Origin: an uncultured Candidatus Solibacter sp.
GTDB lineage: Bacteria; Acidobacteriota; Terriglobia; Bryobacterales; Bryobacteraceae
Reading direction: 5' to 3'
Assembly (NCBI GenBank): GCA_964385495.1
Contig: CAYLPH010000021.1
Span: forward strand, 38,738-102,737
DNA length: 64,000 bases
The notes beneath the pieces were generated by a model. It did not search any database and was not told where the DNA came from. It was given only the letters and a program-made list of their open reading frames with translations. The position numbers were made by a program, and so were the translations under genes. Positions 33,996 to 48,428 of the stretch are shown here, piece by piece. Numbering within the stretch: position 1 is the first letter of the stretch; the number at the start of each line of letters is the position of its first letter.

Positions 33996-35342
33996 TCAAT
34001 CGGTGCGCATCATCCCGCTGATCACCCGCTTCGGCACCGCCCCGACAGTGATTTTCTTCACTACTTCGAAGGTCCGGTTATCGACAACCACCGTCTGGTC
34101 GTCGCCCGCCACCGCCACATATACGTGCTTGCCATCGGGAGGGATGGCCAGCCAATCCGGATGCGACCCAACATCCACCATCTTCACCAACCGGTAATCC
34201 GGCAACGAGTATGCCGCGATGGCCCCATAGTGTTTGCTGGTGGCCCAAAGCAGCTTGCCGTCTGGGGTTATCGCCAGACCGTGCGAAGGCGAGCCCTGCA
34301 GCCCTTCCAACTCCTTCTTTTTCCCTGGTGGATCCGGAAGCGGAATGCGCCGCATCTCCTTCCTGGTGGCGAAGTCCACCAGCGCGAAGCCGTGGTAGTC
34401 CGACAACTGCACGATGATGTTCCGGGTCGAACCGTCCGGGTTGCGTGTGAACGCCATGGGCCGGATACCCGAGCTCAATGTGAGCGTCCACGCCAGGGTC
34501 TGCGACTTCGCGTCGATCACGCTGATCGTGCTCGCGGCAATGGATCCGGCCACCACGTGCTTGCCGTCCGGCGTCATGTAGACGTTGTGAATCTCGCCCT
34601 TCACGGGCACACTCTTGATGTTCCGGTTCGACGCGCTGTCGATAATATCCACCGCCCCGGGCGCCTCTCTGATTCCGACATACACATAGCGCCCATCGGG
34701 CGAGATGTCGACATTATTCGGCTTACCACTCAGCGGAATCCTTTCGATGACCCGCAGGTTGCCGCAATCGACAACGTCCAGCGTCACCCGCGATTCGTTG
34801 GTCACATACAGACGGCGCCCGTCCGGAGACAGCACCAGCCCATGCGGCACCTCAATGCCGTCGATCCTTGCGATCACGCGATTCGTTGCCGGGTCGATGA
34901 TATGGATGTCGTCGCCCGCCGCGTTCGATTGCAGCACCCGCACTCCCGACGCGATTGGCTTCGTTTTGCCATTCACCCAGGCCGCCAGAATCTGCCATTC
35001 GGGGTCTTCCTGCGAATGCCAGTGCTTTCCTCCGGCGTGGAAATGATCGCCGCCGGCATGGTGCGACAGCGGATGTAGCAGCATCCTGCTCTTGAGGGGC
35101 TGCCCCGGCACGACGAAGCCCTTCCACGCATCGAAGTTCTTCTTCGACTGCTCTTCGGTCCACGTGGTGGCGCCCGGGGAGAGCGGCTGTAACGGTGGTA
35201 TGCGATGGGTGTGGCAGGAAACGCAACGCGCATGCCCATCGCGCTTCTTCAGCAGGATCGGCTGAACCTGATCCTTGAAGAACCCATAGTCAAGCGCGGG
35301 TAACTCGCCCGCGAACAGCAGCAATGGCAGGAGTGCAATCAT
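33996..35342 (-). CDS. c-type cytochrome domain fused to a YVTN-type beta-propeller
   Basis: 448-aa ORF. The N-terminal FFKDQVQPILLKKRDGHARCVSCH carries CxxCH, as in PSCyt-like domains. Repeated ...SPDGRRLYVTNES.., ..SPDGRYVYVG.., ..TPDGKHVVAG.., ..TPDGKLLWAT.., ..PPDGKHVYVAV.. blades follow. Confidence 0.8.
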   Translation of the reverse strand: MIALLPLLLFAGELPALDYGFFKDQVQPILLKKRDGHARCVSCHTHRIPPLQPLSPGATTWTEEQSKKNFDAWKGFVVPGQPLKSRMLLHPLSHHAGGDHFHAGGKHWHSQEDPEWQILAAWVNGKTKPIASGVRVLQSNAAGDDIHIIDPATNRVIARIDGIEVPHGLVLSPDGRRLYVTNESRVTLDVVDCGNLRVIERIPLSGKPNNVDISPDGRYVYVGIREAPGAVDIIDSASNRNIKSVPVKGEIHNVYMTPDGKHVVAGSIAASTISVIDAKSQTLAWTLTLSSGIRPMAFTRNPDGSTRNIIVQLSDYHGFALVDFATRKEMRRIPLPDPPGKKKELEGLQGSPSHGLAITPDGKLLWATSKHYGAIAAYSLPDYRLVKMVDVGSHPDWLAIPPDGKHVYVAVAGDDQTVVVDNRTFEVVKKITVGAVPKRVISGMMRTD

Positions 35343-35366
35343 GGCTTCCCTTGTCGGGAGACGCTA

Positions 35367-35786
35367 TCACACTCCGCTGAGCCGTACCAGCGTGGCCGAG
35401 TCTCCTTCTCCCGCGAAGTACTTGTCCAGCGCCTGTTGAAATACCTCGCTGGCGCCAGGCACCTGAGCGAACAGGGTCATGGAAGAATGGAACTTCCTGT
35501 CGTCAGGTGTGCCGAAAATCTGGCGAATGTGCCGGCCCTCCACTGCCATCACCAGTTCTGTGCAGTCCACCAGCCGCACTCCCAGTTTGGGATGCTCCAG
35601 GTAGGCCTTCGCTTCCTCCAGGGACTCGATGCCATAGTATTGCGACATCTCGCTGACACCCAAGCCCCGCAGTTGGGGGAACACGAACCACATCCAGTGC
35701 GTACGCTTATGGCCGTCGCGCAACTCCGCACGGACTTCATCGTAGATCAGATCCTGGGCTTCAACGAAACGGCGCAGATTGAACAT
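35367..35786 (-). CDS. DUF1810 family protein
   Basis: From the ATG at 35786: MFNLRRFVEAQDLIYDEVRAELRDGHKRTHWMWFVFPQLRGLGVSEMSQYYGIESLEEAKAYLEHPKLG.... Confidence 0.8.
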   Translation of the reverse strand: MFNLRRFVEAQDLIYDEVRAELRDGHKRTHWMWFVFPQLRGLGVSEMSQYYGIESLEEAKAYLEHPKLGVRLVDCTELVMAVEGRHIRQIFGTPDDRKFHSSMTLFAQVPGASEVFQQALDKYFAGEGDSATLVRLSGV

Positions 35787-36110
35787 GGATCCTAGGCACC
35801 GCGATGCCTCCGATACAGCGTACCGTATTACGCCGGTTAACGCGTTCACGCGAGTTGCAAACAATTCTCGCCTCCCCTAAGCCGTGCGGAATCTGTAACG
35901 TAATTACCTTTCGCAACCCGCCTGGTACCCGATCCCTTGGAGACCCACTGGTATCCTCAATCCGGGAGAATTGCACGGCATTCCCGGCACTTCACCGGAA
36001 AGGAAGTTCGCAGCCATGATCGGCAAACTCACGAGCGCGGGAATAGAAAAATTGCAATCCGAACCAACGGCCGAACCGAAAATCAATCACTTACAGGAGT
36101 CTGAATCACT

Positions 36111-36434
36111 ATGCCCGGCTGCCTAGGTCCCGACATCACCTTTCCGCGCCGCTTCGTGCCGCGCCCGGAAACCTGTTCTCCGTTCCTTTGCCGCCCCTCG
36201 CCGCATGGGCGACACGACGGTGTCTGCGCTTCTTCTGGCCAGCCCGCTACACCCAACGCCGCCGGCCGCGACACCCCGGCTGCGGCGCGCCATAAGACCG
36301 CGGCCCAGCCGTCGATCGAAGAGATGCGCCGCGAAGTCGACGAGACCAACGAGGTCCTCACCAGAGTCATGTTCACGCTTCGTGGCTTCCCGGACGCCGC
36401 CGCTGCGGTCTCGGCCATGCTCGTCCCGAACTAG
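36111..36434 (+). CDS. hypothetical protein (weak call)
   Basis: 107-aa ORF with GC-rich third positions and a CAGGAG 13 nt upstream. The sequence is Pro/Ala/Arg-rich with a helical tail (SIEEMRREVDETNEVLTRVMFTLRGF). I recognised no family. Confidence 0.3.
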   Translation: MPGCLGPDITFPRRFVPRPETCSPFLCRPSPHGRHDGVCASSGQPATPNAAGRDTPAAARHKTAAQPSIEEMRREVDETNEVLTRVMFTLRGFPDAAAAVSAMLVPN

Positions 36435-36453
36435 CCAGGAAACGGTCAAGAGC

Positions 36454-37698
36454 TTATGGCACCGGAATCCCAGCAATACAGCGTACCGTATCCCTTGCGA
36501 TCAGCAACTCTTCGTTGGTGGGAATCACCCAGGCCGGTATGCGGGACGTCTCGGCCGATATGCAGGCATCCACGCCAATGGCGCCCGCGTTGCGGCCCGC
36601 GTCTACTTCGATGCCCATCCCGGCCAGCGGCTCCAAAATGCGCTGGCGGATAACCGGGGAATTTTCCCCGATACCGCCGCCGAACAGAACCGCGTCACAG
36701 CCTCCCATCGCGGCCATGTACGCGCCGATGTACTTGCGCACGCGGTAGCAGAACATGTCGATGGCAAGCTTCGCGCGCGGATTGCCTTTCGCCTCCTCTT
36801 CCAGTAGGACGCGCATGTCGCTGGAGATTCCCGACACGCCATAAAGGCCGCTCATGCGATTCAGCATCGACTCCAGCCCCTGGGGATCCATCTCCTCGTG
36901 CCAGATGATGTGCAGCACCGCCATCGGATCGACATCCCCGCATCGCGTGCCCATCAGCAGCCCTTCCAGCGGCGTGAAACCCATCGACGTGTCCACCGAA
37001 TCGCCGCCGTCGATCGCGCATACCGAACAGCCGTTGCCCAGGTGGCAGGTGATGAGCTTGTAATCGTCGCGCGACTTGCCGTGGATTTGCGCGAACCGGT
37101 AGGAGATGTAGCGGTGCGATGTGCCATGGAAGCCATAGCGGCGGATCTTGAAGCGCTCGTAATAGAGGTACGGCAGGCCGTAAAGATAGGCGTGCGGCGG
37201 CATCGAGCTATGAAACGCCGTATCGAACACCGCTACGTGCTGGGCACCGGGCAGCAGGGATCGGGCCGCGTAGAAGCCCTTCAGGTTATGCGGCGTATGA
37301 AGCGGCGCCAGATCCACCGAATCCTCGATCGTATCCACCACCTCTTCGCTCATCAGCGTCGAAGAGCGGAAGCGTTCCCCGCCGTGAACGATGCGGTGGC
37401 CCACTCCCTCAATGCCGTTCGGGCCCTGGATCTCATCGCCCCAATGCTGCAGGCAGGCGTCCACGATGGCTTGCACCGCATCCTCGGCCTTGTAAATGGG
37501 TTTCGGTTCTTTCAGTTTCTTACGCCCGGGAATCCGCTCGGGTGCCTCTACGTTCACGACGGAGTAAGGCGTGCCCATCCGGTCCACCGTGATCTTGGCC
37601 AGCAGCCGGTCGCTATTGGAAGCGATCATGTCCGGGCTAGTCTCGATCAACTGGCTCTTCGCGGTGGAACTGCCGAAATTTAAAACAAGGACCTTCAT
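36454..37698 (-). CDS. ackA: acetate kinase
   Basis: 414-aa [20 protein letters not shown]..., ...GHRIVHGGERF..., ...VAVFDTAFH..., ...RRYGFHGTSHRY..., ...FGGGIGENS. Confidence 0.92.
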   Translation of the reverse strand: MKVLVLNFGSSTAKSQLIETSPDMIASNSDRLLAKITVDRMGTPYSVVNVEAPERIPGRKKLKEPKPIYKAEDAVQAIVDACLQHWGDEIQGPNGIEGVGHRIVHGGERFRSSTLMSEEVVDTIEDSVDLAPLHTPHNLKGFYAARSLLPGAQHVAVFDTAFHSSMPPHAYLYGLPYLYYERFKIRRYGFHGTSHRYISYRFAQIHGKSRDDYKLITCHLGNGCSVCAIDGGDSVDTSMGFTPLEGLLMGTRCGDVDPMAVLHIIWHEEMDPQGLESMLNRMSGLYGVSGISSDMRVLLEEEAKGNPRAKLAIDMFCYRVRKYIGAYMAAMGGCDAVLFGGGIGENSPVIRQRILEPLAGMGIEVDAGRNAGAIGVDACISAETSRIPAWVIPTNEELLIARDTVRCIAGIPVP

Positions 37699-38834
37699 AA
37701 ATGTTTAACGGGTGGAATGGGTACGGTGCCGACGATCTCGATGCCAAAGCCTTCCAGCCCGGCAACCTTGCGTGGATTATTGGTGAGCAGCCGGATTCGC
37801 GACAGGCCCAGGTCCACCAGGATCTGCGCACCGATGCCGGTATCGTGCTGCTGCCGCCTCTCGCCCTGAGGCGTGGCGGGAAACTCATCCCGCCCATGCG
37901 TGAGCAGGCGCGTTCCCTGCGGGTCGGCATGCGTGCGGATGCCGGCCCCGGTCTGGTGCAGGTAGACCAGAACGCCCGCGCCTTCTTCGTCGATCGCCTT
38001 CAGCGCGCCATGAATCGCCTGGCCGCACTGGCAGTCGATGCTGTGAAACACATCGCCGTAGGTGCAGCGGGAATGCATGCGCACCAGAACATCGCCGCTG
38101 TGGCGCACATCTCCGCGAACCAGCGCCATGTGTGTCTCGCCATCCACGTTGCAGGAGTAGGATATGGTCCGGAACTCGCCGTGCGCCGTGCGCAGGCAGC
38201 CTTCGGCCCTCCGCATCACAATACTCTCGTGCTGCAGCCGGTAACGGATAAGGTCCGCCACGGAAATCATCTTCAGCCCGTGCTTTTCACAGAACTGTAT
38301 CAATTCGGGCACCCGCGCCATGGTGCCGTCGTCATTCATGATTTCGCAGATCACACCGCCAGGACGGAGTCCAGCTAGGCGTGCCAGGTCCACCGCGGCT
38401 TCTGTCTGTCCGGTCCGCACGAGCACGCCACCCTGTTTGGCGCGGAGCGGAAACATGTGTCCTGGGCGCGCCAGATCCGCTGGGCGTGTGGCCGGGTCCA
38501 TCATCACGCGGATGGTATGGGCGCGGTCCGCGGCGGAGATGCCGGTGGTCACACCGCTGGCCGCATCCACGGATTCGCAGAAAGCCGTCCCGAACATCGA
38601 CGTGTTGCGCGGCGTAATGAGCGGCAAATGAAGTTGGTCACACAACTCCGGCGCCAGCGCGATGCAAATCAGCCCGCGCCCATGCACGGCCATGAAATTA
38701 ATGAGCTCTGGCGTTATCTTCTCGGCGGCAATAGTAAGGTCGCCTTCGTTCTCGCGATCCTCGTCGTCCACCACCACCAACATCCGCCCGGCGGCGAAGT
38801 CAGCAATGGCTTCCGGTATCGGCGCAAATGGCAT
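37695..38834 (-). CDS. ribBA: bifunctional 3,4-dihydroxy-2-butanone-4-phosphate synthase / GTP cyclohydrolase II
   Basis: 379-aa ORF. ...[40 protein letters not shown]... (RibB) followed by ...[21 protein letters not shown]... (RibA). There is a 4-nt overlap with ackA. Confidence 0.92.
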
Positions 38835-38880
38835 AATGATTAACTCGATTCTAGCGTGAGCGCCCGGCGCGCTCGAGGTT

Positions 38881-41880
38881 TTGATGCATCAGGTCGCCCG
38901 TCCGAAGAATCTCCGGACTCCGCAACAGGAGTCACGCGAACGTGTCCGCTATTACATCTTCGCGGCCTTCGTTGGTATCCTTTTGCTGCTCAACGTCACG
39001 GGTGTCTTCAAGACTTTTCTCGGCATTGATACCGCCGCCTTCGTGGTTGTGCTGGCTGGCTACAAAACGTTCTACAACTCCATTGTTTCTCTTCTTGACA
39101 GGCAGGTCACGGCGGACCTGGCGATCTGCATCGCCGTGGTGGCCGCGCTTTCCACCGGCGAGTATCTGGCCGCCGCCGAGGCGCTGTTCATCATCCTGGT
39201 GGGTGAGGGGCTGGAAACGTACGCGGCTGGCCGTACCGACGCTGCCATTCGCAAGTTCGTGGAGCAGATGCCCCGCCGCGCCCACCTGCTCCGCGATGGC
39301 CAGGAAGTGGAGGTAGATGTCGACGACCTCAATCCAGGTGACCGCATTCTGGTGCGCGCCGGAGAGCGCATCACCGCCGATGGCTTAGTTGCCACGGGCC
39401 TGTCCAGCGTGGATGAGAGCACCATCACCGGTGAACCCGTACCGCGCGACAAGAAGCCCGGCGAGTCCGTGTTTGCCGGGACATTAAATGGCACCGGGTT
39501 GCTGGAGATCCAGGTCACCAGCGCCGGCTGGGATACAACACTGGCCCATGTGGTGCACCTGGTGAAAGAAGCCAGGAACCGCCAGGCTCCGGTAGAGCGC
39601 GCCGCCGATCAGGCTGCGAAGTACTTTCTGCCCGCGATACTGCTGGCCGCCGCCGCTACGTTCTACTTCACGCGCGATTGGCTGCGTACCGTTGCCGTTT
39701 TGATTGTCGGCTGTCCGTGCGCGTTGATTCTGGCAACGCCAACAGCCATGGTCGCGGCGATCGGCGGCCTGGCTCGCAAAGGCATCCTGGTGCGGGGCGG
39801 CGCCGTTCTCCAGAAAGCCGCGAAGGTGAATGCAGTCGTCTTCGACAAGACAGGCACGGTTACGGAAGGTAAGTTCGAGATTGTGCGTGTCATTCCGGCT
39901 GCGCAAAGCGAAGGGGAGGTGCTGCGGTTGGCGGCGATGGCCGAACGCGGGTCGGAGCATGTTCTGGCGCGCGTCATCGTCGAAGCCGCCAGGGCCAAGC
40001 ACATGGATATCCCTGCCGTCGAGGACGCCCGCGTGCTTCCAGGCTGCGGTGCGGAGGGCGTTTACCAGGGCATCGCCATTCGCGCCGGCAACGCCGCGTA
40101 CCTGAACGAGCATGGCGTCACAGGTCTGGAGGGCGCCCTTGCAGAAGCGGACCGTATGGGTGCTACCGCCGTGCTGGTAGCGGAAGACAACAGCTTGGCG
40201 GGCGCCATCCTGCTCCGCGACCGGCTTCGCGCCGGCGTGAAGAAGGCTATTCACCAACTGCGTGATCTCGATATCGACGATGTCGTCATGCTCACCGGCG
40301 ACCGGCGCCGCGCCGCCGAAGTGATCGCGAAGGAACTCCAGTTTCCGCAATTTGAAGCGGAACTGCTGCCAGAACAGAAGCTCGACCGCATCCGCCAGTT
40401 GGCAGGCAGCGGGCGCGTGGTGGCGATGGTCGGCGACGGTATCAACGACGCCCCCGCCTTGGCCGCAGCCGATGTGGGTATCGCGGTGAAGGGCGCCAGC
40501 GACATCACGGCCGAAGCCGCTGATGTGGTCTACATGAGCGATAGCCTGGACCGCCTGCCCCTGCTCTTCCGTGTCAGCCGGCGGGCCATGAAGATCACCT
40601 GGCAGAACATCGTGATCTTTGCCGGCGTGGTCAACTTCGCCGCGGTTCTGGCCTGCGCCACCGGCATCCTGGGACCGCTTGGGGCTGCCTTCACGCACCA
40701 GATCTCCTCGCTCTTCGTGATGCTGAGTTCACTGCGTCTGCTGCAAGCGGAGCCGGCGCAACCTGTCTGGGTGAGAAAGTATTTTGGCTGGGCGAGCGGG
40801 CATAGAATCCATCACCGGTGGGAACGGCTCGACCTCGCTCGGGCGGCACGTCGAGTCTGGTCCCAACGCGGCCGCTGGGCCCGTCCATTGGCGGCGGCCG
40901 CGGTTGCAATGGTGGTCATGAACGGCTTCTACGTGCTCCAACCCGACGAGACCGGCGTGGTGGAACGGTTCGGACGCAAGCTCATGCCGCACCGCGAGCC
41001 CGGCCTGCACTACAAATTGCCGTGGCCGGTGGAGAAGCTCACGCGCATCCAGGCACGGCGTACACGGGTGCTGGAGTTCGGGTATCGCTCCACCGCTGAC
41101 GCCAATGAGTCCGAGCCTGCCGCGTACGAATGGAACGTCCAGCACCGCGGCGGTCGCTTCCAACGCAAGCCGGAAGAGGCGCTGGTGCTTACCGGCGACC
41201 AGAACATGATGGAGGTGAATGCCGCCATTCATTACCGCCTGGCGCGGCCCGATGAATTCCTGTTCGGCCTCGCCGATGGAGAGGCGACGGTGCGCGTTGC
41301 CGCGGAGTCGGCTGTCCATGCGGTGCTCACCACGATGGACCTGGACGGGGCATTAACGCAGTCCCGGCGCGCGATGGAACAACGTATCGCCGGCGAGATG
41401 CAGCGCCGGCTGGACCGCTACCAGGCAGGTGTCGAGGTGCTGCACGTCAAACTGCTGGACGTGCATCCGTCGCTCGAAGTGGTGGATGCTTTCCGGAACG
41501 TCGCCGGAGCCTTCGAGGAGAAGAACCGGCTGGTCAATGAAGCAGAGGGCTATCGCAATGAGCAGGTGGCGCTGGCGCGCGGCAACGCACAGGCAGGCCT
41601 TCTCAACGCACAGGGCTATCGGGTTGGGCGCCGCAATCGCTCAGAAGGCGATGCCAGCCGCTTCGTCCGGGCCGAAGGCGCGTTCCGCACGGCTCCGGGG
41701 TCTACGGAAACGCGCCTCTATCTCGAGGCCATGGAAGAAGTCCTCCCCGGAAAACGCAAGCTGATCGTAGATGCTACCAAAGGCCGCCGGCACTTGCTGC
41801 TGCTGGAAGATGGAGTGGAGATCGCCCCGCCGGCCATGCCCTTTGTCGCACCCAACCGGCCACAGCGGGAGGAGCAGTAA
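38881..41880 (+). CDS. P1B-type heavy-metal-translocating ATPase fused to a C-terminal HflK-like SPFH (Band 7) domain
   Basis: 999-aa ORF with 8 N-terminal TM segments, TGEP (aa 183-186), CPC (nt 39712-39720), DKTGT (nt 39844-39858) and GDGINDAPAL (aa 519-528). After aa ~622 come an Arg/Trp-rich linker and one TM (aa ~669-686). An HflK-like sequence follows (VVERFGRKL..PGLHYKLPWPVEKL..LTGDQNMMEVNAAIHYR..VDAFRNVAGAFEEKNRLVNEAEGYRNE..GDASRF..RLYLEAMEEVL). Confidence 0.8.
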   Translation: MMHQVARPKNLRTPQQESRERVRYYIFAAFVGILLLLNVTGVFKTFLGIDTAAFVVVLAGYKTFYNSIVSLLDRQVTADLAICIAVVAALSTGEYLAAAEALFIILVGEGLETYAAGRTDAAIRKFVEQMPRRAHLLRDGQEVEVDVDDLNPGDRILVRAGERITADGLVATGLSSVDESTITGEPVPRDKKPGESVFAGTLNGTGLLEIQVTSAGWDTTLAHVVHLVKEARNRQAPVERAADQAAKYFLPAILLAAAATFYFTRDWLRTVAVLIVGCPCALILATPTAMVAAIGGLARKGILVRGGAVLQKAAKVNAVVFDKTGTVTEGKFEIVRVIPAAQSEGEVLRLAAMAERGSEHVLARVIVEAARAKHMDIPAVEDARVLPGCGAEGVYQGIAIRAGNAAYLNEHGVTGLEGALAEADRMGATAVLVAEDNSLAGAILLRDRLRAGVKKAIHQLRDLDIDDVVMLTGDRRRAAEVIAKELQFPQFEAELLPEQKLDRIRQLAGSGRVVAMVGDGINDAPALAAADVGIAVKGASDITAEAADVVYMSDSLDRLPLLFRVSRRAMKITWQNIVIFAGVVNFAAVLACATGILGPLGAAFTHQISSLFVMLSSLRLLQAEPAQPVWVRKYFGWASGHRIHHRWERLDLARAARRVWSQRGRWARPLAAAAVAMVVMNGFYVLQPDETGVVERFGRKLMPHREPGLHYKLPWPVEKLTRIQARRTRVLEFGYRSTADANESEPAAYEWNVQHRGGRFQRKPEEALVLTGDQNMMEVNAAIHYRLARPDEFLFGLADGEATVRVAAESAVHAVLTTMDLDGALTQSRRAMEQRIAGEMQRRLDRYQAGVEVLHVKLLDVHPSLEVVDAFRNVAGAFEEKNRLVNEAEGYRNEQVALARGNAQAGLLNAQGYRVGRRNRSEGDASRFVRAEGAFRTAPGSTETRLYLEAMEEVLPGKRKLIVDATKGRRHLLLLEDGVEIAPPAMPFVAPNRPQREEQ

Positions 41881-41883
41881 CTC

Positions 41884-42771
41884 ATGAACGGATTTGTCGA
41901 GAAGTATTCCCGCTGGCTGCTGGGTGCGGCCGCGCTCCTGATGATATGGCTATCGTTCTACACCGTGCGCGAGACCGAGTTCGTGCTGGTGACGCAGTTC
42001 GGGCGCCCGCTCTACACGGTCCACGAAGCGGGCCTACACACCAAGTGGTTCTTTCAAAGCGCAACCTACTTCGATAAGCGGCTGCGCGTTTATAACCCCC
42101 GCCCAAGTGAATTCCTGACGCGCGATAAGAAGAACCTGGTCGTGGAAAGCTACGTCGCCTGGCGCATTCAGGATCCCAAGCGCTTTGTGGAAAGCGTGGG
42201 CGATCCGGTTGCCGCGGAGATGCGCCTGCACGATATTGTCTGGTCCGGCCTGGCGGCGGCACTGGGCACTCATGATCTGGATTCGCTGATCTCGGTCAAC
42301 ACGCAAGCCGTACAGGCGCGGCAGCTCTTTGATCAACTGACAGCCGATACCGACCGCAAAGCGCTCGCCCAATACGGACTCCAGGTGGTGGACGTGCGCA
42401 TCAAACGCTTGAATCTCCCCGATCAGAACAAGCAGAGCGTCTATGCGCGAATGCGCGCCGAACGCGAACGGATCGCCCGCCAGTATCGCGCCGAAGGCGA
42501 AGAACAAGCGTTACGCATTCGCGCCGATGCGGACCGGCAGAAGGAAGAGATCCTCTCGCTTGCCTACAAAGATGCCGAGAAACTCAAAGGCGAGGGCGAT
42601 GCCGAGTCCACCCGCACGTACTCGCAGGCCTACTCGCGAAACCCGCGCTTCTACAAGCTGCTGCGCACTCTGGAGGCCTACAAGAAGGTCCTGGACGACA
42701 AGACCACAGCCATCCTCAGTTCGGACTCGGAACTGTTGAAAGTCCTGATGCGCGGAGAGACGGCCCAATGA
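41884..42771 (+). CDS. hflC: HflC-like SPFH domain protein
   Basis: 295-aa ORF with an N-terminal TM. ...FVLVTQFGRPL...LTRDKKNLVVESYVAWRIQDP...VVDVRIKRLNLPDQNKQSVYARMRAERERIARQYRAEGEEQALRIRADADR...GEGDAES...NPRFYKLLRTLEAYKKVL. Confidence 0.8.
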   Translation: MNGFVEKYSRWLLGAAALLMIWLSFYTVRETEFVLVTQFGRPLYTVHEAGLHTKWFFQSATYFDKRLRVYNPRPSEFLTRDKKNLVVESYVAWRIQDPKRFVESVGDPVAAEMRLHDIVWSGLAAALGTHDLDSLISVNTQAVQARQLFDQLTADTDRKALAQYGLQVVDVRIKRLNLPDQNKQSVYARMRAERERIARQYRAEGEEQALRIRADADRQKEEILSLAYKDAEKLKGEGDAESTRTYSQAYSRNPRFYKLLRTLEAYKKVLDDKTTAILSSDSELLKVLMRGETAQ

Positions 42772-43748
42772 AGCTGCTGGAACTGGATCCGGCGCTGTTG
42801 AAGGCTTCGTTACCGCCCGAGGCTGCCAGCACGATCCGGCGCCGCTGGTGGCTGGGCTTGCTGCTGTTGTGGTTGCTCACCAGCGTCTACATTGTGCGGG
42901 CCGATCAGCAGGCAGTAGTGACGCGCTTTGGACGCGTCGTGGAATCGCGCGTGACCCCCGGTATTCACCTTAGCCTGCCGTGGCCGGTGGATCGCGTGAC
43001 GCGCCTGAAGGTGCGGCAACTGCAACGCCAGGTGATCGGAGGTACGCTCACCGACAACGTGGTGGGCCGCACCCAACCGTTATTGGCGCAATTCCTTACC
43101 GGTGACCAGAACATCATTTACCTGCGCGTCATCGCACAGTATTCCGTGAGTGTTCCGGCCGACTACCTGTTCCAGACCGGGGATGTCGCCAAGGTGGTGA
43201 TGGCTGCCAGCGAAGCCGAACTGGCGCGGCGCATCGCTTCCCGCGCCGTTGACGCCGTGCTTACCACGGAGAAGGCCGCTATTCAGGAAGAGGTGCGCGC
43301 GGCCGCCCAGAAGGTATTGAACGACTATCGTTGCGGCGTCATCCTGGCGAGCGTGAACATCGAGTCCGCCGCGCCACCCCCCGAAGCCGCCGAGGCCTTT
43401 CGCGACGTGGCCAGCGCGCGCGCGGATTCCGCCCGCATCGTGAATGAAGCGCAGGGCTATGCCAATGACCTCCTCCCCAAGGCCCGCGGCCAGGCGCAGC
43501 AATTGCTGGAATCCGCGGCCGCCTACAAACAACGTAAGATCAACGAAGCCATCGGCGACGCATCCCGCTTCTCGCAGGTCGCGGCGGAGTATGCCAAGGC
43601 GAGTGAAGTGAACGGTCGCCGCCTCTACATGGAGACCATGGAGCAGGTGCTGCCGCGAATCAGGAAACTGATCGTGGATAAGAACGGCAACCTCGATCTC
43701 ACCATCGTCCGCCGTGCCACTGAGCCGGCCAGCGGGGAGAAGAAGTGA
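42768..43748 (+). CDS. hflK: HflK-like SPFH domain protein (second HflK-type module)
   Basis: 326-aa ORF with an ATGA overlap to hflC. ...AVVTRFGRVVESRVTPGIHLSLPWPVDRV...FLTGDQNIIYLRVIAQYSV...AFRDVASARADSARIVNEAQGYANDLLPKARGQAQ...GDASRFSQV...RLYMETMEQVLPRIRKLIVD. Confidence 0.8.
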   Translation: MKLLELDPALLKASLPPEAASTIRRRWWLGLLLLWLLTSVYIVRADQQAVVTRFGRVVESRVTPGIHLSLPWPVDRVTRLKVRQLQRQVIGGTLTDNVVGRTQPLLAQFLTGDQNIIYLRVIAQYSVSVPADYLFQTGDVAKVVMAASEAELARRIASRAVDAVLTTEKAAIQEEVRAAAQKVLNDYRCGVILASVNIESAAPPPEAAEAFRDVASARADSARIVNEAQGYANDLLPKARGQAQQLLESAAAYKQRKINEAIGDASRFSQVAAEYAKASEVNGRRLYMETMEQVLPRIRKLIVDKNGNLDLTIVRRATEPASGEKK

Positions 43749-44248
43749 CAAAGGAGCGGCGGGCACAGGTCCTGACGGTGCTCATTCTTGGCGGGGCACT
43801 TGCCTTCGCCGGCTATCGCAAGGGTGCGTTGCCTGCAATTGATTTGTCGGGGGTGGCGGCGCAGAACGCCCCACAAGCTGACCCTACACCGCAGGATGCC
43901 GTCTATGCGATGCTGGACGCCGGTAGGGAAGGCAAGGTGGCGGAGTATCTGGCCGCGCACACCGGGCAGATGGCGGAGTCCTTGCGGAAGTCGATTGCCG
44001 AGCAGGGCGATGCGGCGTTTTCGGCGTACCTCCGGGAGTCGAATTCGCCCATCAAAGGCATTGCTCTGCAGGAGCCGCAGCCGCTGACCGATCATGAGGT
44101 GAAAGTAAAAGTGGAGTATGTTTTCGCTGACCGCAATGAGGTGCAGTGGATGTACCTGGAGCGCGACGGCAAGCTGTGGCGAATCTCCCGCGTAGATGCG
44201 GCGGAACGGATCAAGACGCTGGTTCCCTATGGCACGCCTGTCCGTTGA
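43745..44248 (+). CDS. membrane-anchored hypothetical protein (possibly an NTF2-like fold)
   Basis: 167-aa ORF with a GTG start in a GTGA overlap with hflK. One TM (VLTVLILGGALAFAGY) is followed by a ~120-aa soluble domain. Confidence 0.55.
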   Translation: MTKERRAQVLTVLILGGALAFAGYRKGALPAIDLSGVAAQNAPQADPTPQDAVYAMLDAGREGKVAEYLAAHTGQMAESLRKSIAEQGDAAFSAYLRESNSPIKGIALQEPQPLTDHEVKVKVEYVFADRNEVQWMYLERDGKLWRISRVDAAERIKTLVPYGTPVR

Positions 44249-46739
44249 GGCACGCCGGAAACTGCTGGTGGCGCTGGCGGTGCTGGCCGGCATCTACCTG
44301 GCCACCTACTCGTACGATGTCCTGCGCCGCATTTACAGCCGCGGCATCGTTTCCGATCCGCTGGAGTTCACGATGCTTCCGCCGGAGGTCGGCCTGGTCC
44401 GGCCGGAGGCTCGCGGATTCGGGCTGAAGCATGGCGACCAACTCACGTCGATCAATGGCCAACCTATCACCGGATCGCTGACGTTGAGCCGCTTGCTGGC
44501 GAAGGCCAAGCCCGGCGATACGATGATCATCACGTGGCGCTCCCAAAGCGGCGGCGCCGAGCACAAGGCTTCGCTGACTCTCCGCAACCCGCCGCGCGGC
44601 GCCACGCCCATCCCCCTGCTGATCACGCAGGTGCTGCTTCCCAATTTCAGTATGCTGTTGGGCTTCACCGTAGCGTTCCTGCGCCCGCTGGACCGGCGTT
44701 CGTGGATCCTGCTTGGCCTCATGATCTCCTTCCCTGGCATGATCCAGTCGCCAGTGGATATCGGCCGTTGGCCCACCCCGCTCTACGAACTCGGCATGCT
44801 GTTTCGCGTGGGGGCGCCGATGACCTGGGGCATCTGGATGATGCTTCTGGGCCTGGAGTTTCCGGAACGGCTCCATGGCTTCCGCCGTCTGCGCGCAGCG
44901 GCATGGGCACTGGGAGCGCCCCTCCTGCTGCTTTCCCTGGCGCGGTTCTCGTTCGAGTTTGTGCGTGCCCACAACGTTCAATCCGCCCGTGCCCTCTGGG
45001 ACATAATGCGTCCCGCGGGCTTTATCTCGCTGATCCTATCCATGGCGGCGATTGGCCTCTTCTTCTCCGCAATGGGTATCCAGAATGCGGTGATCGAGAA
45101 GCCCGACGCCCGGCGGCGCGCCAAACTCCTATTGTGGGGTTCCTACGTGGCCCTTACGCCAACCTTCCTATTGCTGCTGTGGTCGCTCGCGCTGGGCCGG
45201 CCGCCGATGGGTGCCGCGCCGTTCCCAATCGTGATCTTCACGTTTCTCATGATGGCCCTGTTCCCGGTGGTGCTGGCCTACATCATCGTGGTCGAACAGG
45301 CGCTGGATATCCGCGTGGTATTGCGCCTGGGCATGCAGTACGCGCTCGCGAAGAATGCGCTGGTCGGCGCCAGTTGGCTAGTGGGCGGGTTAGTAGCCGT
45401 GTATGTCATTCGCGCCATAGAGTCGGAGCAGAGCCAATCGCTGGAAGTCGCCACGGCGTTGGTGGGCGCGGGCGCCGTCGCCTCGCTCATCCCTCTTCAG
45501 AAGCGCCTGACGCAAGCCATCGACCGCCGCTTCTTTCGCGACGCCTACAATGCCGAGCATGTGTTGACCGAACTGACCGAAGAGGTGCGTACCGTCGTGG
45601 AGCCGGGACCGCTAGTCGAGATGGTCGGCAATCGCATCTCGCAGGCCATGCACGTTCCCCGGTTGGCGATATTGCTCAAACAGCCCGCGGGCTATCAGCC
45701 GGCGTTCACCATCGGGTATCCCCCGGAGATGGTGGCGGAGCGGCTTCCGGAGATCCCCGATGTCGATCAGATCGATCCGCGCCATCCGCCCAAGCCCGAT
45801 GGGTGGAGCCGCCTCGATACCCATCTGCTGCTCCCCGTGCTCTCGAAGAACGGTGTACTCGGCATGATCAGCCTGGGTGGGAAGCGCTCCGAGGAGCCTT
45901 ACTCTTCGAGCGATATCCGTCTCCTTCGTTTGGTAGCGGCACAGACGGCGCTGTCTCTTGAGAACACAAAGCTCACCGCCGTGGTAGCGCATGAAATCGC
46001 ACAGCGGGAACAGTATGACCGCGAGATGGCCATCGCCCGGGATGTGCAGCGGCGCCTGTTCCCCAGCAAAGTGCCGCAGTTGCGCAACGTGGATTGCGCC
46101 GGCGGCTGCCGTCCGGCCCAGAGCGTGGGTGGCGACTACTACGATTTCTCGGAGCTCCCTGACAACGAGATGATGTTCGCGGTGGGCGATGTAAGCGGCA
46201 AGGGCATGCCCGCGGCTCTGCTGATGGCGGCGCTGCAGGCCAGCGTTCGCGGACAGACCATGAACAGCGTCACGGATCTGGCGCTGTTCACACGCAACGT
46301 CAACCTGCTGCTCTACGACATGTCGCCGAAGAGCCATTTCGCAACCCTGTTCTACGCGCTCTACGATCCGGTTCTGCGCACGCTGCGCTATGCCAATGCC
46401 GGGCACAATCCGCCGCTGTTGATTCGCGCCAACGGGCCGCTCGACTTCCTGAAGCCCACCGGACCCGGTGTCGGCATGACGCGGCTGGCGGTGTATAAGG
46501 CGGAAGAGGTAAGACTCAAGCCAGGCGATATGGTAGTGGCGTACACCGACGGCATCACCGAAGCCATGGATCGCACTAGGGACGACTTTGGCGAGTTGCG
46601 GCTGATCGAAGCCGTGCGGGCATCGCGGGATAAGAGCGCTGGCGAGATTATTCGCCACATCATGACCGCCGTTGACGAGTTCACGAAGGGCGCGCCCCAG
46701 CATGACGACATGACGCTGGTCATCCTGAAGGTGCAGTAG
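44229..46739 (+). CDS. membrane-bound PP2C (SpoIIE-type) protein phosphatase with an N-terminal PDZ domain and a polytopic sensor region
   Basis: From the ATG at 44229: a TM, then a PDZ-like segment (LKHGDQLTSINGQPITGSLTLSRLLAKAKPGDTMIITW), ~8 TM segments and a GAF-like linker. The SpoIIE block follows (ARDVQRRLFP...GGDYYDF...FAVGDVSGKGMPAALLMA...YANAGHNPP...YTDGITEA...DDMTLVILKV). Confidence 0.8.
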   Translation: MARLSVEARRKLLVALAVLAGIYLATYSYDVLRRIYSRGIVSDPLEFTMLPPEVGLVRPEARGFGLKHGDQLTSINGQPITGSLTLSRLLAKAKPGDTMIITWRSQSGGAEHKASLTLRNPPRGATPIPLLITQVLLPNFSMLLGFTVAFLRPLDRRSWILLGLMISFPGMIQSPVDIGRWPTPLYELGMLFRVGAPMTWGIWMMLLGLEFPERLHGFRRLRAAAWALGAPLLLLSLARFSFEFVRAHNVQSARALWDIMRPAGFISLILSMAAIGLFFSAMGIQNAVIEKPDARRRAKLLLWGSYVALTPTFLLLLWSLALGRPPMGAAPFPIVIFTFLMMALFPVVLAYIIVVEQALDIRVVLRLGMQYALAKNALVGASWLVGGLVAVYVIRAIESEQSQSLEVATALVGAGAVASLIPLQKRLTQAIDRRFFRDAYNAEHVLTELTEEVRTVVEPGPLVEMVGNRISQAMHVPRLAILLKQPAGYQPAFTIGYPPEMVAERLPEIPDVDQIDPRHPPKPDGWSRLDTHLLLPVLSKNGVLGMISLGGKRSEEPYSSSDIRLLRLVAAQTALSLENTKLTAVVAHEIAQREQYDREMAIARDVQRRLFPSKVPQLRNVDCAGGCRPAQSVGGDYYDFSELPDNEMMFAVGDVSGKGMPAALLMAALQASVRGQTMNSVTDLALFTRNVNLLLYDMSPKSHFATLFYALYDPVLRTLRYANAGHNPPLLIRANGPLDFLKPTGPGVGMTRLAVYKAEEVRLKPGDMVVAYTDGITEAMDRTRDDFGELRLIEAVRASRDKSAGEIIRHIMTAVDEFTKGAPQHDDMTLVILKVQ

Positions 46740-46740
46740 G

Positions 46741-47253
46741 ATGATTGCCCTGCTTTCCGTATTGCTCGGATGCCTGCTCTCTTCGCAGACCCCGGCGCCG
46801 CAATTGCCTGATATCAAATACGCCCGCCGCCCACCGGATCAGCCGCTGCCGTTCAGCCATAAGCAGCATGCCGGCACCAACGGCACCGCCTGCAGGCAGT
46901 GCCATCCCATGCCGGATCCGGGCGACTACATGCAACTGCCGGCCACCTCCGTTTGCATGAGTTGCCACACCGCCATAAAGACCGCCAGCCCGCACATCCA
47001 AGCGTTGTCGGCGGCGCATGCCGAACGGCGCAAGATCGAATGGAAGCCGGTGTACAAGATCCCGGATTACGTGTTCTTCAATCACAAGAAGCACAATGCA
47101 CTGGCGGGCGTGAGTTGCGCGAGTTGCCACGGGCCGGTGAAAGAGCGCGAAGTGCTGCGGCGCGAGAAAGAGATCAGCATGCAAGCCTGCATGGATTGCC
47201 ACCGCCAGATGCAAGCCCGGAACGACTGCCGGTTCTGCCACGACCCGCGCTAG
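46741..47253 (+). CDS. pentaheme c-type cytochrome lipoprotein
   Basis: 170-aa ORF with a lipobox-like VLLGC. Five CxxCH motifs are read directly: CRQCH, CMSCH, CASCH, CMDCH, CRFCH. It starts 1 nt after the phosphatase stop. Confidence 0.8.
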   Translation: MIALLSVLLGCLLSSQTPAPQLPDIKYARRPPDQPLPFSHKQHAGTNGTACRQCHPMPDPGDYMQLPATSVCMSCHTAIKTASPHIQALSAAHAERRKIEWKPVYKIPDYVFFNHKKHNALAGVSCASCHGPVKEREVLRREKEISMQACMDCHRQMQARNDCRFCHDPR

Positions 47254-48428
47254 CGCGCCTGCACCAACTTGCCCACCAGTTCCGTGATCTCCCGCTTCAA
47301 CCGCGCATGCCGCGCGCCGGTGGATGGCCCATCGAAGCCGGCATGGAGCAGCTTCACTTTGCCGTCGCGCCCAATGTAGATATTGGTGGGATACGCGCCA
47401 AAGTTTTCCAACTGCGGCAGGGTCTTCTCGATATCCTCCGTGGCGCCCGCGTAGAGAATCGGGTACGGCGGCTGGTATCTTGCCTGGAACAACTTCAACT
47501 GGCGGATGTCGCGCTCCGCCTCGCCCGTGTACTCAAAGGCCAGCGAGATAATCTCCAAACCCTTGTCGTGAAACTTGGCCCATAGCTCCTTCAGCAGCGG
47601 AATCTCTTCATGGCAGTTCGGGCACCAGCTTCCCATGATGTTGATCAACACAACCTTGCCCTGGAAACGCGGATCGGCGGCGGACAGACGGTTGCCGTTT
47701 AGATCGGGGAAGGAGAATTGAAACCGCTCCGACGGGTTCTTCATCCGCGTGTAGGCAGTCGCTTCCGGCGGCTTCTCGCTCGTCTCTTTCGCCCTCCGGC
47801 CGCGCACGGTGGCGCTGCCGTCCATCATCCCCGTTAGTGCGCCATCGGTTCCCACGCTGGCCGCCAGCAACGTGGAGCGGATCCCGTCAAAGCGGCTAAC
47901 CCGCAGCGAACGTCCCTCGACGAAGCCCGACAGCAATCCGGAGTCGCCGCTCACCGGCAGCAGCGTACCTTCCAGTCTGCTGCCTTTCTGCGCGAACTGC
48001 GCCTTCCAGATGCTGCGCTTTCCGGCGTCCGTCACTTCCAGTGTCCATTCCCCGGATACATCCACGGCCGGTGGAAGTTTGGGCGTCAGCAGCGGCTGCC
48101 GTTGCGCCAGGAACTCACGTTTGCGGATCTCCTTCCGCCAGGTACGCGTATAGACGCCAGTGAACTTCGTCCCATCGAAGTCCGCCTCCAGCACGCCATC
48201 CCAGTGATTGAAGACCAGCCGTAACTTCTGCCCATCGAAGGTGCCGGAACTCGACTGCTCGCGGTCCGGGCCGTTAACAAGGGCGCCGGACCACGCGTTG
48301 CCGCGCTGTTCGAGTTGTAATTGGAAGCCGGCGAGATCGCCGTTCGGAAGCTTGACCGCCGCATGCCAGACACCGGTAACACTCTGTGCATGGGCCGTCG
48401 CGCACAGGGCAAGGACCCGGAGTAGCAT
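47250..48428 (-). CDS. TlpA/redoxin-family thiol-disulfide oxidoreductase with an N-terminal extra domain (secreted)
   Basis: The C-terminal thioredoxin fold is ...GKVVLINIMGSWCPNCHEEIPLLKELWAKFHDKGLEIISLAF.... The start is set at the ATG at 48428 (MLLRVLALCATAHAQS). Confidence 0.8.
   Translation of the reverse strand: MLLRVLALCATAHAQSVTGVWHAAVKLPNGDLAGFQLQLEQRGNAWSGALVNGPDREQSSSGTFDGQKLRLVFNHWDGVLEADFDGTKFTGVYTRTWRKEIRKREFLAQRQPLLTPKLPPAVDVSGEWTLEVTDAGKRSIWKAQFAQKGSRLEGTLLPVSGDSGLLSGFVEGRSLRVSRFDGIRSTLLAASVGTDGALTGMMDGSATVRGRRAKETSEKPPEATAYTRMKNPSERFQFSFPDLNGNRLSAADPRFQGKVVLINIMGSWCPNCHEEIPLLKELWAKFHDKGLEIISLAFEYTGEAERDIRQLKLFQARYQPPYPILYAGATEDIEKTLPQLENFGAYPTNIYIGRDGKVKLLHAGFDGPSTGARHARLKREITELVGKLVQAR

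Follow-up and report, generated by a model that had tools for sequence, protein, structure and literature searches.

The stretch of 64,000 nucleotides (nt) analysed here, henceforth the window, comes from an uncultured Candidatus Solibacter sp. (assembly GCA_964385495.1, contig CAYLPH010000021.1) and carries on its forward strand a gene that joins a P1B-type metal-transporting ATPase to an HflK-type SPFH module. This fusion gene heads a translationally coupled cassette encoding the fusion, HflC, a second and unfused HflK (henceforth HflK2) and an NTF2-like protein, as listed in Table 1. Positions 38881–41880 (+) form one open reading frame (ORF) of 999 codons with 0 internal stops. The frame can open at TTG 38881 or, one codon further 3', at ATG 38884. 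When the starts of related genes were aligned, ATGCAT was found to open all of them, and ATG 38884 was therefore adopted as the working start, giving a fusion protein of 998 amino acids (aa). An earlier note on this DNA, made from the sequence alone, had reported the uninterrupted frame correctly, and its length of 999 aa is corrected to 998 by the conserved ATG.

Three Pfam domains were returned for the fusion protein, namely E1-E2_ATPase at aa 129–300 (E 3.7e-52), Hydrolase (HAD) at aa 317–531 (E 1.2e-31) and Band_7 at aa 685–890 (E 5.6e-17), which is the combination that the earlier note had expected. The NCBIfam model for heavy-metal P1B ATPases (TIGR01525) scored 553 bits against a cut-off of 346. 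The hflK equivalog model (TIGR01933) scored 190 bits against a cut-off of 159.4 over aa 683–974 and was matched at positions 1–257 of 261, so the C-terminal 330 aa carry both a Band_7 and an HflK match. Comparison of the N-terminal 620 aa with solved structures matched CopA, ZntA and sCoaT with E-values from 3e-106 to 4e-87. The AlphaFold2 (AF2) model of the fusion, with a mean predicted local distance difference test (pLDDT) score of 80.9, contains 8 + 1 helices followed by the SPFH domain and a 73-residue helix. The pump half was superposed by Foldseek on Archaeoglobus fulgidus CopA (7r0g, E1 state) with a target-normalised TM-score of 0.72 over 657 columns. The eight-helix P1B-type ATPase read from the letters alone is thus borne out by the AF2 helices and the CopA match, and the ninth transmembrane (TM) helix with its complete HflK-type SPFH/coiled-coil module by NCBIfam and by alignment to E. 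coli HflK. A sequence check placed TGEP (aa 183–186), CPC and DKTGT exactly where they had been reported, together with the linker beginning VRKYFGW..., the TM segment PLAAAAVAMVVMNGFYVL and every HflK-like string; only GDGINDAPAL had been misplaced, at aa 519–528 instead of 518–527. The single polypeptide is a complete, apparently active P1B-type metal-exporting ATPase standing in place of the cytoplasmic N-terminal tail of HflK.

Assemblies in NCBI and Logan hold the identical fusion protein on 7 contigs. A genome scan using one genome per GTDB species found 285 relatives, and 80 loci were retrieved, of which 74 contain both the pump and the HflK halves. The frame is uninterrupted in 70 of these 74, and the absence of a stop at the junction, as first reported, is borne out in them. 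Two apparent stops among related loci proved to be a true stop or to lie upstream of the start. All 120 of the 90%-identity clusters listed encode proteins of 967–1013 aa with the three Pfam domains each, at 63–100% identity. An exhaustive family search against 1.84 billion representatives at 50% identity, with the top 150 assessed, gave full-length fusions for ~61 of those 150, the lowest at 33% identity, and all three Pfam domains were present in 45 of 46 distant long members. The source names of the members include Acidobacteriota (Bryobacterales, Thermoanaerobaculia, Vicinamibacterales), Planctomycetota, Elusimicrobiota, Ca. Sumerlaeota and Ca. Fervidibacterota, and the window is 89% identical to Bryobacterales MAG-244.

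The fusion is therefore conserved across at least five bacterial phyla, so orthologous loci do not always encode separate, unlinked genes, and the intact frames, breadth and three-domain members mark it as maintained by selection. A sequencing or assembly artefact, in which a frameshift or a lost stop merged two neighbouring genes, has a negligible chance of explaining these data. Frameshifts do occur in four of the 74 loci, but they are scattered within domains at no common junction, and three of the four loci bear 'MFD'-series isolate names, which we take to denote long-read metagenome-assembled genomes. Set against them is a single ORF with a length-conserved linker in the other 70 loci, in the 120 clusters and in five phyla, and the independent assemblies rule the artefact out.

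Variation in the family was also recorded. One protein considered as a split or short form (P0166) is short through truncation at a contig end. No hflK was found adjacent to the unfused relatives P0181 and P0206, and the contig of a third relative (P0187), at 2.4 kb, is too short to show its neighbours. At the other extreme, locus L085 (8001–11906) encodes a 1301-aa variant of the fusion (P0152) with ~300 extra residues lacking a Pfam family, and several further distant members run to 1100–1220 aa. Database labels range from 'cadmium-translocating P-type ATPase' and 'Cu+-exporting ATPase' to 'FtsH protease activity modulator HflK' and, once, 'P-type ATPase/HflK protein'; these inconsistent pipeline names (Cd pump, Cu pump, FtsH modulator) make the family invisible to keyword searches.

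Members down to ~33% identity keep the catalytic motifs of the pump module (TGE, CPC, DKTGT, the N-domain His and GDGxND) with little or no change. Because they are near-invariant family-wide, the pump is probably an active enzyme and not a degenerate membrane anchor. A cytoplasmic HMA or His-rich terminal metal-binding domain is common, although not universal, among P1B ATPases. Pfam gave 0 hits to HMA or any other terminal metal-binding domain in the fusion or in any of 46 distant members, and the N-terminal tail of the pump is only ~20 aa long.

P1B-1 pumps (Cu+; CopA) are recognised by Tyr-Asn in M5 and Met-x-x-Ser-Ser in M6, P1B-2 pumps (Zn/Cd/Pb; ZntA) by Lys in M5 and Asp-x-Gly in M6, and P1B-4 pumps (Co/Ni/Zn; CoaT) by SPC in M4 and His-Glu-Gly-x-Thr in M6. 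The membrane signature of the fusion (CPC in M4, Asn in M5, His-Gln in M6), as read from its sequence, is unlike that of the CopA or ZntA types. Assignment to P1B-1 was rejected on our own sequence reading, in which M5 has Val-Asn and His605 occupies the position of the CopA Met in M6; TIGR01511 was barely passed (420 against 397). P1B-2 was likewise rejected, the Lys in M5 and the Asp-x-Gly in M6 both being absent and the ZntA equivalog models reaching 345 against a cut-off of 1240. The P1B assignment of the earlier note thus holds, with the refinement that the pump fits neither standard type. For the M5–M6 region the best match in the PDB was the P1B-4 pump sCoaT, in which His605-Gln606 aligns over His-Glu, although M4 of the fusion has CPC.

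A further class, P1B-6, is described in a 2026 review by the hallmark N-X18-H-N-X-(S/T) between M5 and M6, which together with CPC is present in CtpC, the PacL1-dependent pump of M. tuberculosis (PMC13460109). The fusion reads N584-X20-H605-Q606-X-S608 against the hallmark as quoted there, and its closest unfused pumps combine CPC with His-Gln, His-Asn or His-Glu, some reading N-X20-H-N-X-S. With CPC combined with His-Gln, the substrate is more likely to be divalent (Zn, Co, Ni, Cd or Mn) than Cu(I). Neighbouring genes of Co/Ni type offer a weak hint as to the metal. The Elusimicrobiota fusion is located behind cbiQ and an ABC ATPase gene, in the order hflC, hflK2, cbiQ, ABC, fusion (locus L084, 4116–10982), and locus L087 (1–7863) has Band_7, NfeD, cbiM (with an MHIPDG start), cbiN, cbiQ, cbiO and an unfused pump. 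At locus L091 (5685–7908) an unfused pump follows a CsoR/RcnR-family repressor. A general link to cobalt/nickel ECF transporters was rejected, as cbiQ/O or cbiMNQO stand beside the pump only in the distant loci L084 and L087 and in 0 Bryobacterales loci.

The linker that follows M6 is weakly conserved in sequence (0.36 against 0.72–0.91 for the domains), and its residues 625–660 are helical in the AF2 model at low confidence. Its length is constrained, the distance from the end of M6 to GVVxRFG being 70–79 aa in 156 of 185 family members, and so is its charge (K+R 9.2 against D+E 4.4). The linker had been described as Arg/Trp/His-rich; its basic and cytoplasmic character stands, whereas the His and Trp content is unconserved. 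The ninth helix is the counterpart of the single N-terminal TM helix in free-standing HflK. Eight helices ending in the cytoplasm, a basic linker in keeping with the positive-inside rule and a ninth helix together predict that the fused SPFH domain and coiled coil lie in the periplasm, the same topology as in free-standing HflK.

The AF2 model bounds the SPFH domain at aa 682–860 and the 73-residue helix at aa 864–936, with a second helix and a short strand thereafter. The fused module was aligned to residues 83–136 and 147–355 of E. coli HflK (7vhp_E) with an E-value of 1.3e-33, an alignment that spans the TM helix, SPFH domain and coiled coil. The HflK module is therefore complete, including the coiled-coil and C-terminal oligomerisation region. 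The fused paralogue alone has an insert of ~40 aa, in which W750 and H754 are nearly invariant, and a nearly invariant H861 (VHPP); W750/H754 of the insert and H861 together might form a candidate periplasmic His site. The insert occupies the loop that in E. coli HflK bears R141 and E142, which with R185 make the contacts to FtsH (PMC13220708). In the fused module R185 corresponds to an Arg that at least 85% of family members retain. HflK2 carries a shorter insert at the R141/E142 loop and has Met in place of R185.

A pair of downstream SPFH genes had been noted from the sequence and proved to encode HflC and a second HflK. Adjacency to HflC, a membership feature of HflK, was thus found for the fused module at the gene level. 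Cassette composition was counted in the 61 related loci having at least 2.7 kb downstream: HflK2 occurs in all 61, HflC in 60, and the cassette is complete and in order in 56. Measured against the window, median identity was highest for HflC, the most conserved cassette gene (78%), followed by HflK2 (70%), the pump (66%), the fused HflK module (62%) and the fourth gene (49%). The order fusion, Band_7, Band_7 recurs in Sumerlaeota, Planctomycetota-type and other distant contigs, often followed by a ~160-aa gene without a Pfam hit. In Elusimicrobiota, hflC and hflK2 stand upstream of the fusion, and the Fervidibacterota cassette consists of the fusion and hflC alone, without an unfused HflK. The fused module of the window shares 34% identity with the HflK2 encoded there and 23% with the HflC. 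Since each paralogue best matches its own window type in every distant locus holding them, the three SPFH paralogues are ancient and orthologous across phyla. A PADLOC search for defence systems gave 0 hits for the four cassette proteins.

The fourth cassette gene has 276 homologues and encodes a protein with an N-terminal membrane anchor. Its AF2 model is an NTF2-like cone (pLDDT 82), for which Foldseek matched ketosteroid isomerase, NTF2 and DUF4783 folds, and the NTF2-like domain is predicted to be periplasmic. The C-terminal tail TLxPYGTPV is invariant, is of low confidence in the model and resembles a docking peptide. The homologue alignment shows no Cys, His or Met that is invariant. The protein was considered as an NfeD and rejected as such, with 0 matches to NfeD (PF01957) or to any other Pfam or NCBIfam family and a predicted fold of NTF2 type. 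A homologue occurs in the distant locus L085 (E 1e-25), where the sole hint of lineage is a DUF1598 gene nearby, from a planctomycete-associated family. One homologue is labelled DUF4878 by one source.

Table 1 Features of the fusion gene and its cassette in the window.
Feature	Position	Strand	Basis or remark
Fusion gene, P1B-type ATPase + HflK	38884..41880	+	998 aa + stop
Pump module, aa 1–620, helices MA, MB, M1–M6	38884..40743	+	Pfam, NCBIfam, AF2, motifs
TGE, actuator domain	aa 182–184	+	T182, G183, E184 nearly invariant
CPC in M4	nt 39712–39720	+	C277, P278, C279 conserved in at least 90%
DKTGT phosphorylation motif, HAD-type P-domain	nt 39844–39858	+	Nearly invariant in family
GDGINDAP	nt 40432–40455; aa 518–525 in TTG numbering	+	Nearly invariant in family
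M5 Asn584; M6 His605-Gln606	nt 40696–40701 for His-Gln	+	His-Gln nearly invariant
Cytoplasmic linker, aa 621–661	40744..40866	+	Lys/Arg-rich; low pLDDT
Ninth TM helix, aa 662–679	40867..40920	+	Hydropathy; AF2; aligned to E. coli HflK TM region 83–136
HflK module, predicted periplasmic: SPFH, long coiled-coil helix aa 864–936, second helix, C-terminal strand	40921..41877	+	Band_7, TIGR01933, AF2
Insert of ~40 aa, aa 725–766, specific to fused HflK paralogue	41056..41181	+	EPAAYEWNxQHRxGRxQRKPEE consensus
hflC-type partner, 295 aa, one N-terminal TM helix	41884..42771	+	TIGR01932, 218 bits; 3-nt gap after fusion stop
Second, unfused hflK (hflK2), 326 aa	42768..43748	+	TIGR01933, 220 bits; ATGA overlap with hflC
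Fourth gene, 167 aa, NTF2-like	43745..44248	+	GTGA overlap with hflK2

The fusion ATG is separated by 49 bp (38835–38883) from the start of a divergent ribBA gene (38834, −). A palindrome in this interval (GAGCGC-N5-GCGCTC, 38858–38874) was considered as an operator and rejected, as it is retained only in the closest relative. An Rfam scan of 34000–48000 at E ≤ 0.1 returned nothing, and no FMN riboswitch was found between ribBA and the fusion; promoter and terminator scans gave no more sites than in shuffled sequence. Downstream of the cassette, an 847-aa PDZ-GAF-SpoIIE (PP2C) phosphatase is encoded at 44196–46739 (+), its annotated start overlapping the end of the fourth gene by 53 nt. Only the closest relatives have this phosphatase after the cassette, some of them (L006, L076) in two tandem copies. 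Directly after it stands a 170-aa multihaem cytochrome c7/c3-like ORF with CXXCH repeats (46741–47253, +). On the other side, upstream of ackA, genes for a DUF1810 protein (35367–35864, −) and a cytochrome-d1/YncE-like beta-propeller protein (33996–35342, −) appear unrelated to the cassette.

The arrangement is read here, with a probability of roughly 0.55, as a hard-wired pump–scaffold platform in which a divalent-metal exporter would be held and clustered in an SPFH-delimited patch of the inner membrane. The fused HflK module, HflC and the unfused HflK would co-assemble into a ring or cage of HflK/C type, with HflC as the common partner of the fused module and HflK2. One pump would be carried to the ring per fused subunit, and the unfused HflK would dilute the pumps, or set their number, in each ring. 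Such an assembly would hold, cluster and probably stabilise the exporter, making the platform a functional analogue of the non-covalent PacL–CtpC effluxosomes of mycobacteria. Partner logic for this reading was also drawn from E. coli, where HflC is unstable when HflK is absent (PMC13220708). The functional reading of the earlier note, in which an SPFH microdomain would incorporate or surround the pump, stays at the level of inference.

Several points weigh against the platform. Assembly into a ring is itself inferred, and pump activity is read from motifs. Dilution of the pumps cannot be essential, because the Fervidibacterota cassette lacks an unfused HflK. The locus is surrounded by ribBA, ackA and aspS with no metal-sensing regulator nearby, a housekeeping setting at least as compatible with a constitutive function in physiology as with detoxification. 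The analogy to PacL would be one of function only, there being no DUF1490 protein here. Sequence does not decide whether the pumps would stand inside or outside the ring, and on this placement the occurrence of HflK2 in most cassettes and its lack in Fervidibacterota point in opposite directions.

Among the alternatives, the fused HflK could instead dock the pump into an FtsH-HflK/C holoenzyme, where regulated proteolysis or protection, for example according to metal load, would set pump abundance. FtsH-centred quality control of this kind is regarded as unlikely, although it has several points in its favour. The module scores above the cut-off of the HflK equivalog model, a family in which the characterised members act as FtsH modulators, and it keeps the R185-equivalent Arg; MgtA, another P-type ATPase, has been called a known substrate of FtsH (PMC13220708), and CtpG is shielded from degradation by PacL scaffolds (PMC13043812). 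On the other hand, the conserved insert has replaced the R141/E142 loop, Met stands in place of R185 in the unfused HflK, and the evolutionary distance is too great to judge FtsH binding. An FtsH-like ORF (Walker A plus HExGH) was found neither in the window nor within ~8 kb across 87 related loci, which is weak evidence because ftsH is unlinked from hflKC in E. coli as well. A second alternative is caged periplasmic discharge, in which the pumps would sit within a closed dome of HflK/C type and export into a sealed periplasmic lumen. By topology the pump exit and the SPFH dome would both be on the periplasmic side, and the counterpart of the W750/H754 loop in E. coli HflK contacts the periplasmic domain of FtsH inside the assembly. 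Further points in favour are the near-invariance of W750, H754 and H861 in the fused paralogue only, the conserved and apparently periplasmic fourth protein with its invariant, docking-like C-terminal tail, and the housekeeping context without a metal regulator, which suits a physiological role. Sealing is, however, at odds with the native E. coli HflK/C assembly, which is reported to be open and nautilus-like (PMC13220708), and twelve pump headpieces would, on a rough estimate, be too big to fit within a ring ~20 nm across but could surround it. The Fervidibacterota cassette also lacks a diluting HflK. Discharge into a closed lumen is accordingly viewed as quite improbable. The same doubtful standing is given to its use as a nanocompartment in which a client would be metallated or buffered, with the NTF2-like protein or the His-bearing SPFH insert as acceptor, and the NTF2-like protein lacks any invariant Cys, His or Met.

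The SPFH module might also be a non-assembling appendage, serving in cis as a periplasmic sensor or autoregulator of a monomeric pump, with the neighbouring SPFH genes forming a separate complex. P1B pumps with regulatory terminal domains are indeed named in titles cited in PMC13460109, among them a hemerythrin-like domain and autoinhibitory tails sensed by metal-binding domains. Nevertheless, the full HflK coiled-coil and C-terminal oligomerisation region is retained, the fusion is translationally coupled to the most conserved gene of the cassette, E. coli HflC depends on HflK for its stability, and the three-paralogue set is conserved across phyla. These features leave the appendage with very little probability.

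SPFH proteins (stomatin, prohibitin, flotillin, HflK/C) form membrane rings or domes in every domain of life, and the contents and purpose of these enclosures are still debated. To our knowledge, very few direct SPFH clients have been established outside FtsH. The fusion is a natural Rosetta-stone link that points to a primary active metal pump as a stoichiometric client of an HflK/HflC-type assembly, and it is of interest chiefly because a specific stoichiometric client is identified and the effect of the ring on its clients becomes testable. It offers a tractable target for cryo-electron microscopy, by which the client could be placed inside, outside or in the wall of the ring, and a genetic handle on whether SPFH scaffolds stabilise, cluster or compartmentalise transporters. 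A pump–scaffold platform would extend the effluxosome idea beyond mycobacteria, and the family has a P1B membrane signature of its own (CPC, Asn, His-Gln), so far uncharacterised, in pumps without a terminal metal-binding domain. Caged discharge, if true, would mean that bacteria have on their inner membrane a nanocompartment bounded by protein, where metal would be concentrated, buffered or passed to a client and not freed into the bulk periplasm. A full-text literature search found no paper on an SPFH scaffold to which a P-type pump is tethered, in agreement with the earlier note, which knew of no characterised example; a passing mention may have been made before. The fusion is also unmentioned in the survey of prokaryotic SPFH evolution by Hinderhofer (2009). 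Its parts, an HflK/C scaffold and a P1B pump, are known, and their covalent union is what appears to be new.

The closest structural comparison is with the E. coli HflK/HflC-FtsH complex (PDB 7VHP, 7WI3, 9CZ2, 9PAW), which the C-terminal third of the fusion resembles at the level of the HflK equivalog, with HflC directly 3'. The N-in, single-TM, periplasmic-SPFH topology of E. coli HflK would be kept in the fusion, its orientation being that predicted above. Where E. coli HflK has a short disordered cytoplasmic tail, the fusion has a 620-aa P-type pump, and in the fused paralogue the R141/E142 loop is exchanged for the conserved 40-aa insert. The cassette further differs from the E. coli pair in having two HflK paralogues per one HflC, plus the NTF2-like gene. 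In operons of the SPFH-NfeD kind (stomatin/QmcA type) an SPFH gene is likewise co-transcribed with that of a small membrane-anchored partner; here the fourth gene gives no NfeD hit and has a predicted NTF2-like fold. An unfused pump relative does lie 3 kb from a Band_7-NfeD pair.

Among pumps, the fusion resembles sCoaT (P1B-4, PDB 7QBZ) in M5–M6, with His605-Gln606 over His-Glu, and differs in M4, where sCoaT has SPC and the fusion CPC. Its N584-X20-H-Q-X-S stretch resembles the P1B-6 hallmark as quoted, but M4 has CPC and not SCA, the spacing is 20 and not 18, and Gln takes the place of Asn or Glu. CtpC has CPC with His-Asn before M6, where the fusion has His-Gln. A further difference from these pumps is that the fusion is without a terminal metal-binding domain.

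The nearest functional parallel is offered by the PacL effluxosomes, in which a small membrane-anchored scaffold from the same operon is needed by a P1B metal pump and clusters with it (PMC9374683, PMC13043812, PMC13460109). PacLs are encoded with CtpC, CtpG and CtpV and bind and cluster these P1B pumps, and PacL scaffolds stabilise CtpC and CtpG and keep them from being degraded (PMC9374683, PMC13043812). PacL has been likened to flotillins by its authors, although its assembly is independent of the mycobacterial flotillin (PMC9374683). Membership of the fusion in the PacL effluxosomes was rejected, as Pfam returned 0 hits to DUF1490 among the four cassette genes and both upstream neighbours, and the two are better described as analogues. 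PacL, a DUF1490 protein bearing Glu/Ala repeats, is cytoplasmic, non-SPFH, encoded upstream of its pump and associated with it non-covalently, whereas the fusion cassette encodes a true HflK/HflC set, predicted to be periplasmic and covalently fused to the pump.

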